A stretch of 64,000 nt of DNA from a virus (Duplodnaviria > Caudoviricetes). The stretch covers positions 1-64,000 of the IMG/VR virus record IMGVR_UViG_3300032216_002106, one strand, 5' to 3'. Positions 36,193-37,099 of the stretch are shown here, one piece after another; positions within the stretch are counted from its first letter, which is position 1, and every line of letters starts with the position of its first letter. A program made the translations under genes and the position numbers. Under the pieces are notes generated by a model. The model was not told the origin of the DNA. It ran no database searches and saw nothing but the letters and a program-made list of their open reading frames with translations.

Positions 36193-36265
36193 TAAGCCAC
36201 ACTCAGTGTGTGGCAATAAGTAGGCAGGGGTTTGCACCCTGCCACCCGCTTTAACGGATTACTTT
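36193..36265 (-). ncRNA. motif C tRNA-elbow-like three-way junction plus hairpin, copy 1
   Basis: AAGTA/TACTT closing stem; ATCCG-TTAAAG-CGGGT; GGCAGGG-TGCAAAC-CCCTGCC; GCCACAC/GTGTGGC. Confidence 0.7.
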
Positions 36266-36528
36266 GTAACCAGACGTGCCCGACGAATAACATATCTATC
36301 TTCTTGCTGAAGCAATGCAAGATAAATATATTCTCCTGGAGCTTGAGCCAAGCCTTGTTCAATCATTTCCTCACGGAGAGCATTAAGTATTGCTTCAAGA
36401 GTAGTTTTATAAAATGCAACAAGTTCCTTGGAAAGAACTACCTTCTTTCCTTGGTTAATATGATGCGCTGCAATTCGAATGCGAGCAGCATAATCAGCGT
36501 TACGTTCAGCAACAGTCATTTTAGCCAT
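36259..36528 (-). CDS. hypothetical early protein
   Basis: 89 aa. Confidence 0.55.
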   Translation of the reverse strand: MAKMTVAERNADYAARIRIAAHHINQGKKVVLSKELVAFYKTTLEAILNALREEMIEQGLAQAPGEYIYLALLQQEDRYVIRRARLVTK

Positions 36529-36543
36529 GGTGTGAATGCAATT

Positions 36544-36573
36544 GGATGTCTGCGTGTAGGATGCGCAGCCCCC
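36544..36573 (-). ncRNA. motif B leader hairpin
   Basis: GGGGGCTGCGCATCCTACACGCAGACATCC. Confidence 0.7.
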
Positions 36574-36579
36574 TTGGCC

Positions 36580-36687
36580 TTACTTAATTAAACGATGCTT
36601 AATCATTTCGCAAGACCAACCAACGCAATAACCAATTGCGTAACCTACAAAAGCGTAGGTAGCCATTAGTAACAAAGTTGCAAGCAT
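36580..36687 (-). CDS. 35-aa membrane microprotein absent from the ORF track
   Basis: MLATLLLMATYAFVGYAIGYCVGWSCEMIKHRLIK between motif C and motif B. Confidence 0.5.
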   Translation of the reverse strand: MLATLLLMATYAFVGYAIGYCVGWSCEMIKHRLIK

Positions 36688-36696
36688 GATCGTGAA

Positions 36697-36768
36697 TAAG
36701 CCACACTCAGTGTGTGGCAATAACTGGACCAGGGTTTGCACCTGGTCACCCGCTTTAACGGATCAGTT
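36697..36768 (-). ncRNA. motif C, copy 2
   Basis: AACTG/CAGTT; ATCCG-TTAAAG-CGGGT; GACCAGG-TGCAAAC-CCTGGTC; identical third hairpin. Confidence 0.7.
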
Positions 36769-37038
36769 GTTGTTAATGTGCTCTTGACGTGCACGTTCTT
36801 CAGCCCATCCGTAGAGACCCATGCCTCCTGGAGTTAGTACAAAACCTTCCCGGCCCCAGCCGGCAACTTGTCCTTCGCTGTTACGAAGAACTATTAAGGT
36901 TGTCTTAGCAAGCCGAAGCTTGCCTCCGATTGTTTTTGGTAACCGGGAGCCTTTCCAATTAGCTGCAGAGCGCCGCAAAATTGCTTGCTCAGAAGCAGTA
37001 AAATTAGACACAGGAATCTCCTGTTGTGCGGTGCCCAT
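36763..37038 (-). CDS. hypothetical early protein
   Basis: start revised to MGTAQQE (GGAG directly upstream). Confidence 0.5.
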   Translation of the reverse strand: MGTAQQEIPVSNFTASEQAILRRSAANWKGSRLPKTIGGKLRLAKTTLIVLRNSEGQVAGWGREGFVLTPGGMGLYGWAEERARQEHINNN

Positions 37039-37055
37039 CTCCGCTGTAGGCAATA

Positions 37056-37099
37056 CTGAGTGGGGGATTCGATCCCCCGGCATCACGCCTGGTACTCAG
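37056..37099 (-). ncRNA. motif C-like three-way junction, divergent copy 3
   Basis: CTGAGT/ACTCAG; GGC-GTGAT-GCC; GGGGG-ATCGAAT-CCCCC; followed by TATTGCC as in the other copies. Confidence 0.55.

Follow-up and report, generated by a model that had tools for sequence, protein, structure and literature searches.

What stands between the small early genes of a cyanophage when they are read one after another from the same strand? The question is raised by a 64-kb window, the whole stretch of DNA analysed here, from the 76,058-base IMG/VR virus record IMGVR_UViG_3300032216_002106 (completeness estimate 95%), whose nearest isolate is Synechococcus phage S-EIVl. At three gene junctions on the minus strand of its early region the transcript would fold into a compact element that starts at the stop codon of the upstream gene. 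These elements are mimics of transfer RNA (tRNA) without an anticodon arm; they are neither tRNAs nor known ribozymes. They belong to a large covarying family, and they may be sites at which host tRNA-end enzymes divide a polycistronic message.

Three tRNA-like folds at gene ends

The initial annotation of this DNA had described two three-way junctions and a divergent third copy, all beginning at stop codons. Its coordinates and strings are all present in the window when the minus (coding) strand is read, and minimum free energy (MFE) folding reproduces the junctions exactly, with z scores of −4.2, −3.7 and −3.2 for copies 1, 2 and 3 against dinucleotide shuffles. The upstream stop codon is UAA in copy 1 and UGA in copies 2 and 3. 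The parts of the elements are as follows.

36264-36218, minus strand: type I tRNA-like element, copy 1 (covariance model 77.9 bits, E 1e-19; MFE −20.9)
36264-36260 / 36222-36218, minus strand: closing stem AAGUA/UACUU of copy 1
36261-36259, minus strand: stop codon UAA, inside the closing stem of copy 1
36259-36244, minus strand: side arm AUCCG-UUAAAG-CGGGU of copy 1
36243-36223, minus strand: T-arm-like hairpin GGCAGGG-UGCAAAC-CCCUGCC of copy 1
36217-36196, minus strand: discriminator-like A (36217) of copy 1, UU linker, then a hairpin
36214-36196, minus strand: hairpin GCCACAC-ACUGA-GUGUGGC after copy 1, 13 nucleotides before the ATG at 36182
36768-36722, minus strand: type I tRNA-like element, copy 2 (covariance model 83.7 bits, E 2e-21)
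36768-36764 / 36726-36722, minus strand: closing stem AACUG/CAGUU of copy 2
36765-36763, minus strand: stop codon UGA, inside the closing stem of copy 2
36763-36748, minus strand: side arm AUCCG-UUAAAG-CGGGU of copy 2, as in copy 1
36747-36727, minus strand: T-arm-like hairpin GACCAGG-UGCAAAC-CCUGGUC of copy 2
36721-36700, minus strand: discriminator-like A (36721) of copy 2, UU linker, then a hairpin
36718-36700, minus strand: hairpin GCCACAC-ACUGA-GUGUGGC after copy 2, before the ATG (36687) of a hydrophobic open reading frame (ORF) of 35 amino acids
37099-37056, minus strand: type II tRNA-like element, copy 3
37099-37094 / 37061-37056, minus strand: closing stem CUGAGU/ACUCAG of copy 3
37098-37096, minus strand: stop codon UGA, inside the closing stem of copy 3
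37089-37079, minus strand: mini-hairpin GGC-GUGAU-GCC of copy 3, with the linker ACCA
37078-37062, minus strand: T arm GGGGG-AUCGAAU-CCCCC of copy 3, followed by the closing strand and U-AUUGCC

Copies 1 and 2 are identical in the side arm, the loop and the downstream hairpin, and their differences are compensatory pairs, of which the closing stem has two and the 7-bp (base pair) stem three. The 16-mer of the side arm occurs exactly twice in the window. Copy 3, previously seen as a divergent relative, is equivalent to the first two in that it represents a second type of the same fold, with about 35 distinct covarying relatives.

A covarying family almost confined to phages

The covariance-model search suggested by the initial annotation uncovered a family whose stems covary. 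Type I loci were collected from IMG/VR with a 14-base pattern scan, which gave at least 120 stretches; these loci and the window together hold at least 72 full type I copies with at least 49 distinct cores. A covariance model built from 60 copies has at least 126 matches in 63 viral loci, often several per locus and all on one strand. Among the 60 distinct copies, 98.3% of cells are paired in the structure described above. The covariation score is 0.448, compared with 0.122 for shuffles (0 of 500 reach the observed value) and at most 0.105 when the pairing partners are slid. Double changes are found at 10 of the 12 variable pairs, specifically at 4 of 5 pairs in the closing stem and 6 of 7 in the T-like stem, and RNAalifold recovers the same fold independently. 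The invariance of the side arm in this set was imposed by the search pattern, and covariation of the arm is seen only in divergent copies found later, where its stem takes the forms CCG/CGG, UCG/CGA, CAGG/CCUG, CAG/CUG, GAG/CUC and GUAAG/CUUAC. An invariant U–G pair and many G–U pairs fit only the mRNA (coding) strand, which argues that the selected object is the mRNA.

The full pattern has a single occurrence in 185,579 cellular genomes, on a 4.7-kb contig of a metagenome-assembled genome from a pond, and the family is almost confined to phages. When the region was compared with isolate phages by blastn, the element was found in S-EIVl (two copies), S-SBP1 and uvMED S45-C4, lying between early genes and in gene orientation; S-CBP2 also carries it. 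S-SBP1 and uvMED S45-C4 are T7-like Ashivirus podoviruses, and the element is present in two unrelated Synechococcus phage lineages. This, together with the confinement to phages, points to a reader on the side of the host. A variant in S-SBP1 (ACUGA-UCCGUAAAAGCGGC-...UGCAAUG...; MT424636, 19295-19353, the same as L178:1501-1559) stands about 110 nucleotides (nt) upstream of the major capsid gene, so the family is not limited to early genes. Several types may follow one another in one locus: in L027 four consecutive gene junctions carry, in order, types I, III and I and then a variant of type I whose loop has UUC. A blastn search with a type III copy returned mainly ordinary T arms of tRNAs and transfer-messenger RNAs (tmRNAs) from unrelated phages and was unusable for distribution.

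Three interchangeable types with tRNA-like measures

Type I has the loop UGCRAAC and the fixed arm AUCCG-UNNAAG-CGGGU. The type II pattern occurs in 50 IMG/VR stretches with 38 distinct sequences, of which about 35 are type II elements. Their closing stem, mini-hairpin and T stem all covary, for example from CUGAGU/ACUCAG to UUGGGU/ACCCAA or CUGGGG/CCCCAG, and from GGC/GCC to AGC/GCU. Type III is laid out as NYCUG - A(U/A)GGUG(U/C)A - 7 bp - UUCGAYU - 7 bp - CAGRN; its linker AUGGUGUA resembles a D-loop without a D stem, and its T-loop is canonical. Whatever the type, A-UUGCC comes next and after it a module from the same downstream set, and types I and II are found in the same cassette slot, before the same leader (module b). 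The shared slots and the mixture of types in L027 indicate that the types are interchangeable.

It had been proposed that the closing stem and the 7-bp stem form a 12-bp coaxial helix, the length of a tRNA acceptor plus T arm, and that the loop of copy 3 is T-like. Comparative data uphold both proposals. The 7-nt loop has the general form U-[G/U]-C-R-A-N-N with a near-invariant G–C closing pair, and among relatives it grades into canonical T-loops, from UGCAAAC through UGCAAUG to UUCGAUU, UUCGACU and UUCAAGU. The hairpin conforms to a tRNA T arm, with G at position 55 in type I and A at position 54 in type II. Of 104 distinct covariance-model hits, 91 have 12 nt between the loop and [ACU]UU[GA]C, whether the T stem has 5, 6, 7 or 8 bp; the closing stem thus lengthens as the T stem shortens. 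The lengths of the two stems were also added up for a larger set of 149 distinct elements, giving 12 for 100 of them and 11 for 37. Position 13 in this set is A in 92%, followed by UU, a preference that is partly imposed by the filter but is independently visible in another set of copies. A is also the commonest discriminator base of tRNAs. The elements have the 12-bp stack of acceptor and T stem with a discriminator that is characteristic of tRNA.

An unpaired GG, read by eye, is present in the arm loop or linker of all 18 UUC-loop members examined, often within A(U/A)GGUG(U/C)A, and members with a UGC loop carry AAG in its place. Parsing of the side-arm loop is ambiguous because an optional U–G/U–A closing pair confounds an automatic table; a combination of GA with UU in L057 depends on the parse and was not counted. 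The association of GG with UUC and of AAG with UGC fits the contact of G18/G19-like bases with positions 55/56 in the tRNA elbow and, being a correlation only, is suggestive of such a contact.

Gene finders can mis-annotate these folds, as is seen at L063:13268-13362, where a variant element is overlapped by an ARAGORN 'tRNA-???' prediction whose anticodon has 2 bases. With a type III copy as query, Rfam returned only tRNA-Sec (15.7 bits, E 7.8). Hits at chance level with E up to 10 in 35300-37600, namely Plastid-psbl-rps4 (18 bits, antisense to the T arm) and a tombusvirus element, were set aside. At 36192-36254 (minus strand) there is a sub-threshold Rfam match to queA RNA (RF03093; 15.7 bits, cut-off 52.6), which has AAGCG, a 7-bp stem and ACUGA-UGUGGC in common with the element. 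This likeness possibly reflects a distant relationship, or else chance, and the text of the queA RNA paper contains nothing on the motif.

Structures downstream of the elements

The UUGCC that follows the discriminator-like A is always paired, either as the 5′ strand of a hairpin (for example GCCACAC/GUGUGGC) or in an H-type pseudoknot, and therefore just 2–3 unpaired nt separate the tRNA-like fold from the next structure. The identical hairpin that the initial annotation had placed before the next ATG is indeed found after both copy 1 and copy 2, and this module recurs with covarying stems after many copies in other contigs. The module after copy 3 contains the pseudoknot.

37055-37009, minus strand: U-AUUGCC and pseudoknot module after copy 3 (33 distinct copies)
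37052-37048 with 37036-37032, minus strand: H-type pseudoknot in which UGCCU pairs with the GGGCA loop of the hairpin GCGG/CCGC (37044-37028)
37023-37009, minus strand: hairpin CAGGA-GAU-UCCUG-UG, pairing the Shine–Dalgarno sequence AGGAG with the GUG start

Pairs 2 and 5 of the pseudoknot covary (G–C/A–U and C–G/U–A) among these copies, which come from different loci. The Shine–Dalgarno/GUG hairpin is kept in relatives through two-sided changes (CACGG/CCGUG, CAUGGA/UCCAUG), and it is likely to be a translational throttle. A variant of the pseudoknot is present at about 37352-37326 (minus strand); the general form is UGCC(N) paired with the (A/G)GGCA loop of a GCGG/CCGC or GCAGG/CCUGC hairpin.

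How the elements may act

Minus-strand genes run leftward from about 37.4 kb and plus-strand genes rightward from 38.2 kb, and the elements lie within the first 1.3 kb of the leftward arm. The only minus-strand promoter-like site found in a scan is at 37495-37467; one or two such sites head the whole block, and a terminator scan gave no convincing terminators among the small genes. A single promoter-like site without convincing terminators makes a polycistronic message the natural reading.

Our preferred explanation, which we hold tentatively and at somewhat less than an even chance, is that the elements are cis-acting tRNA mimics read by host tRNA-end enzymes and that they segment the leftward polycistron. 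Cleavage, the enzyme and an effect on stability are what we infer from the structure, conservation, strand, placement and tRNA-like measures of the elements. An acceptor-like stem of 4–7 bp stacks on a T-arm-like hairpin of 5–8 bp, giving a helix of 11–12 bp capped by a T-loop, and the side arm or D-loop-like linker would present AG or GG to positions 2–3 of that loop, forming a tRNA-type elbow. The A at the discriminator position, twelve nt past the loop, is followed by U or UU, and the next cistron then opens with the stable hairpin or pseudoknot. Enzymes of the host that gauge the acceptor/T-arm helix starting from the elbow would recognise this fold and cut the polycistron at its joints. 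RNase P could cut at +1, RNase Z could cut behind the A, or both could act, and RNase E is a further candidate for the AU linker. Such cuts would leave the upstream unit with a compact tRNA-like 3′ cap that resists exonucleases, and the downstream unit would begin with a protective hairpin or pseudoknot (a 5′ cap). On tRNA itself, the elbow, the fixed-length helix and the position after the helix are the features gauged by RNase P, by RNase Z and by the enzyme that adds CCA. Recognition by host enzymes is favoured because the putative elbow and the conserved helix length and following position are what these enzymes measure and because the t-elements of plant mitochondria, considered below, provide a precedent; a role as processing signals for RNase P/Z can reasonably be inferred.

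Several observations weigh against this explanation. Rfam gives nothing at the gathering score over the whole window and, for the three copies themselves, no match to tRNA even at E up to 10; ARAGORN predicts no tRNA in the window and none at the elements in 60 loci, with L063 as the sole exception. In the 149-element set the +1/72 pair is missing in 30% of copies, and position −1 shows no preference for U. Neither RNase Z nor RNase E would have much room on a linker of 2–3 unpaired nt. T-loops are building blocks found in RNAs generally, and tRNA mimicry need not imply recognition by tRNA enzymes. Were RNase P to cut canonically, at −1/+1, the upstream mRNA would lose its stop codon. Most RNase Z enzymes studied require a mature 5′ end (PMC7479834). 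One metatranscriptome run (5% of words matched) yielded assembled contigs that carry only the conserved modules of relatives, with no information on RNA ends or levels. An infection transcriptome of S-SBP1 has been published (PMC7885011).

These weak points make two other readings serious rivals, a passive boundary and a link to the termination of translation. It is somewhat unlikely, in our judgement, that the elements are passive boundaries. The uncut fold and the adjoining structure would block 3′ exonucleases and the scanning of RNase E/J from the 5′ end, and would insulate the A/U-rich and largely Shine–Dalgarno-less start regions. The great stability and local nature of the folds (z scores from −3.2 to −4.3) are consistent with such a role. 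So is the order of parts, in which a second stable structure comes directly after the element, across a very short single-stranded linker, and an unstructured leader then precedes the start codon. Moreover, other, unrelated structured modules occupy further junctions of the operon. For a boundary of this kind, however, a plain hairpin would suffice, and the T-loop identities, the correlation of GG/UUC versus AG/UGC, the constant 12-nt strand and the A at position 13 would be left unexplained.

The loss of the stop codon may be turned into a function if the elements are true 'tRNA punctuation', which by analogy we consider possible but quite unlikely. Host RNase P would cut at +1 of every mimic, 2–3 nt before the stop codon, and the stop-less early cistrons would be directed to trans-translation and RNase R, so that the element would work as a timer for the shut-off of early proteins; release of the next cistron, protected by its 5′ pseudoknot, would fall to RNase Z or RNase E. 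Stop-less mRNA is a substrate of trans-translation in bacteria.

The position of the stop codon is a regular feature of the family. The U-R-A at the 5′ edge is UGA in 68 and UAA in 4 of 72 type I copies. About 85% of type I copies close a long upstream ORF, typically of 60–160 codons, where about 33% would be expected, and neither of the other two frames is long. Across all three types, 130 distinct elements have an upstream frame of 30 codons or more, and in 96 of these the first base of the stop codon is position +3 or +4 of the 12-position 5′ strand. Stop codons persist even where the stem is entirely different: copy 1 has UAA, L273/L286 have UAG, and S-CBP2 has UGA, there at +1. The next start codon lies 25–45 nt downstream of the element. 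It might be, although we find this quite doubtful, that the element is read together with the terminating ribosome and tunes termination and recycling, re-initiation or tRNA-binding factors. All these regularities would fit such a link to translation, and with the pseudoknot the order of tRNA-like domain, pseudoknot and ORF resembles the layout of tmRNA. On the other hand, the downstream genes have their own AUG or GUG, often with GGAG, and about 15% of the copies are away from an ORF end. The G3–U70 alanine identity pair of the tmRNA domain is lacking: position +3 is C in 57% and U in 34% of cases, paired with G or A at T+10, and no 3′ CCA follows position 13. Genome compaction would also explain the placement, as a covarying stem can code while a fixed arm cannot. 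The stop placement may reflect either a functional link to termination or compaction.

The same structural evidence that supports processing by host tRNA-end enzymes would be expected if both ends were cut and the element released as a trans-acting RNA of about 50 nt, a decoy or cofactor for tRNA-modifying or CCA-adding enzymes or for tRNA-directed defence nucleases. Stable t-element RNAs of plants (PMC1920247) and the mascRNA are precedents, and several copies of different types are present per genome. We nevertheless regard this as improbable. The anticodon arm, the usual target of anticodon nucleases, is absent, and a position tied to stop codons and downstream leaders suggests a role in cis.

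The genes around the elements are exchanged. S-EIVl has a leader 95% identical to the one that follows copy 3, yet the upstream and downstream proteins are unrelated, and a relative's contig from a metatranscriptome matches 37009-37111 only, with unlike flanks. Non-homologous neighbours around a conserved element and leader, and the occupation of one slot before module b by types I and II, could speak for a recombination joint or mobile cassette acting at the level of DNA, similar to the PeSL modules of phage T4 (considered below), and the T arm of copy 1 could be taken for a transcription terminator; in both cases the RNA structure would be incidental. This is very improbable. Compensatory changes and strand-specific G–U pairs show selection on the coding-strand RNA and refute a sole role of the DNA. 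Gene exchange at the elements is seen as a consequence of their conservation and not as their primary function, because selection acts on RNA pairing; the shuffling of genes at conserved joints is better read as a by-product. As to termination, only copy 1 passes a lax scan, with a tail (UACUUAUU) that is the paired closing strand, whereas copies 2 and 3 fail, copy 2 lacking a U tract, and the terminator-like sites found in the scan are only about twice as many as expected (5, shuffle mean 2.7). A promoter of the form UUGCCA-N16/17 was also rejected, the −10 positions being unconserved and the scan finding nothing there.

A self-cleaving ribozyme, to which the initial annotation had been led by a loop like that of twister-sister, is scarcely credible: an intercistronic three-way junction with conserved nucleotides would suit it, but no Rfam ribozyme family matches at the gathering score or at E up to 10, the junction has no unpaired nucleotides, and the loop behaves as a T-loop. 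Ordinary tRNA T-loops can stand in for this loop, and a short linker can stand in for the side arm, which is unexpected for a catalytic core.

Other features of the early region

In S-EIVl the leftward arm begins with small unannotated genes, followed by genes for thymidylate synthase, DNA polymerase A, single-stranded DNA-binding protein and primase. The six small proteins flanking the elements in the window have no match in Pfam or PHROGs. A different leader element, GGGGGCUGCGCAUCCUA(A)N(3-4)CGCAGACA, with the hairpin CUGCG/CGCAG, is repeated at 37391-37363, 36574-36547 and 35527-35499 (minus strand); it precedes three other cistrons of the same operon, each without a tRNA-like element in front. 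Further along, 35928-35476 (minus strand) is a region of about 450 nt that begins at a stop codon, is poor in ORFs and rich in stems, and is a candidate for a large non-coding RNA; its part 35613-35793 is at least 95% identical in a relative's contig from an RNA library.

Upstream of the operon, a perfect 16-bp palindrome, GATACGAATTCGTATC (37484-37469), overlaps the only scanned minus-strand promoter-like site, and an extended −10-like sequence, TGCTAGAAT (37452-37444), is located just downstream of it. S-EIVl has GATACGAAT half-sites at the equivalent position. The palindrome region is probably an operator of the divergent control region. In the divergent intergenic region there is also a terminator-like hairpin, CCGGGC-UUAAAAA-CCCGG, with a U tract (37895-37878), which is conserved in S-EIVl and might end a short transcript.

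Comparison with known systems

No description of the family was found in Rfam 15 or in the literature searched; a catalogue of viral structured RNAs (PMC10690425) may contain it. It is abundant in freshwater and marine Synechococcus phages and has no Rfam model. The elements mark conserved joints between rapidly exchanged early genes and can be of use in the annotation and comparison of cyanophage genomes. Three interchangeable types with rich covariation also offer a system for defining the minimal tRNA features read by cyanobacterial RNase P, RNase Z or the ribosome.

Several phage systems have part of this architecture. In phage T7, the RNase III sites R0.3–R1.3 are intercistronic processing signals in early polycistronic transcripts made by the host polymerase, and the element likewise occurs in the early region of T7-like cyanopodoviruses. 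The T7 sites are, in contrast, long irregular hairpins read by RNase III. The CI RNA of phage P4 and the C4 RNA of phage P1 are matured by RNase P, but these are antisense regulators with CCA-type ends, unlike the elements. The promoter-early stem-loop (PeSL) cassettes of T4-type phages are structured joints between small, variable early ORFan genes. As with PeSL, the joints described here are conserved while the genes differ between relatives; unlike PeSL, the scan found no promoter-like site between the small genes, and the elements have covariation at the RNA level and tRNA mimicry.

In comparison with tRNA (RF00005) and the tRNA-like domain of tmRNA, the elements have in common the T-loop consensus, a closing pair like G53–C61, the 12-bp acceptor/T stack, the discriminator A and the GG that accompanies UUC loops. 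The D-loop-like strand of type III, without a D stem, is also found in the tmRNA domain. The elements differ in having no anticodon arm, no encoded CCA and no G3–U70 pair, and their junction divides the helix mostly as 5/7 or 6/6, not 7/5.

Organelles, eukaryotic nuclei and a herpesvirus all provide examples of tRNA-like processing signals. The mascRNA of MALAT1 and the tRNA-like units of murine gammaherpesvirus 68 are folds within longer transcripts, to which they bring RNase P and/or RNase Z so that a 3′ end is formed. They are eukaryotic, full cloverleaf-like structures with no link to stop codons, unlike the phage elements.

The closest analogue is the plant mitochondrial t-element. t-elements are tRNA-like folds in mRNAs that depart from the canonical form but have a conserved T arm and an acceptor-like stem, and they have been proposed, and partly shown, to direct the RNase P and RNase Z cuts that form mRNA 5′ and 3′ ends (PMC1920247). 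In plant nad6 and ccmC the cut falls inside the ORF and the stop codon is lost (PMC1920247); a canonical RNase P cut in the phage element would likewise lose the stop codon. The t-element motif GGTTCRANYCC with an acceptor-like stem is found exactly in type III, and types I and II are one-base variants of it. The t-elements are organellar, whereas the phage elements occur in cyanophages, several per operon at successive junctions. The phage elements differ further by the stop codon at +3/+4, the UGCRAAC loop and fixed arm of type I, and the A-UUGCC with a second structure that always follows. If the proposed role is true, the elements would show how cyanophages form mRNA ends and give cistrons their specific stability in hosts without Rho and with few intrinsic terminators. 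If host tRNA-processing enzymes do read these folds, they would be the bacterial-virus counterpart of mitochondrial tRNA punctuation.

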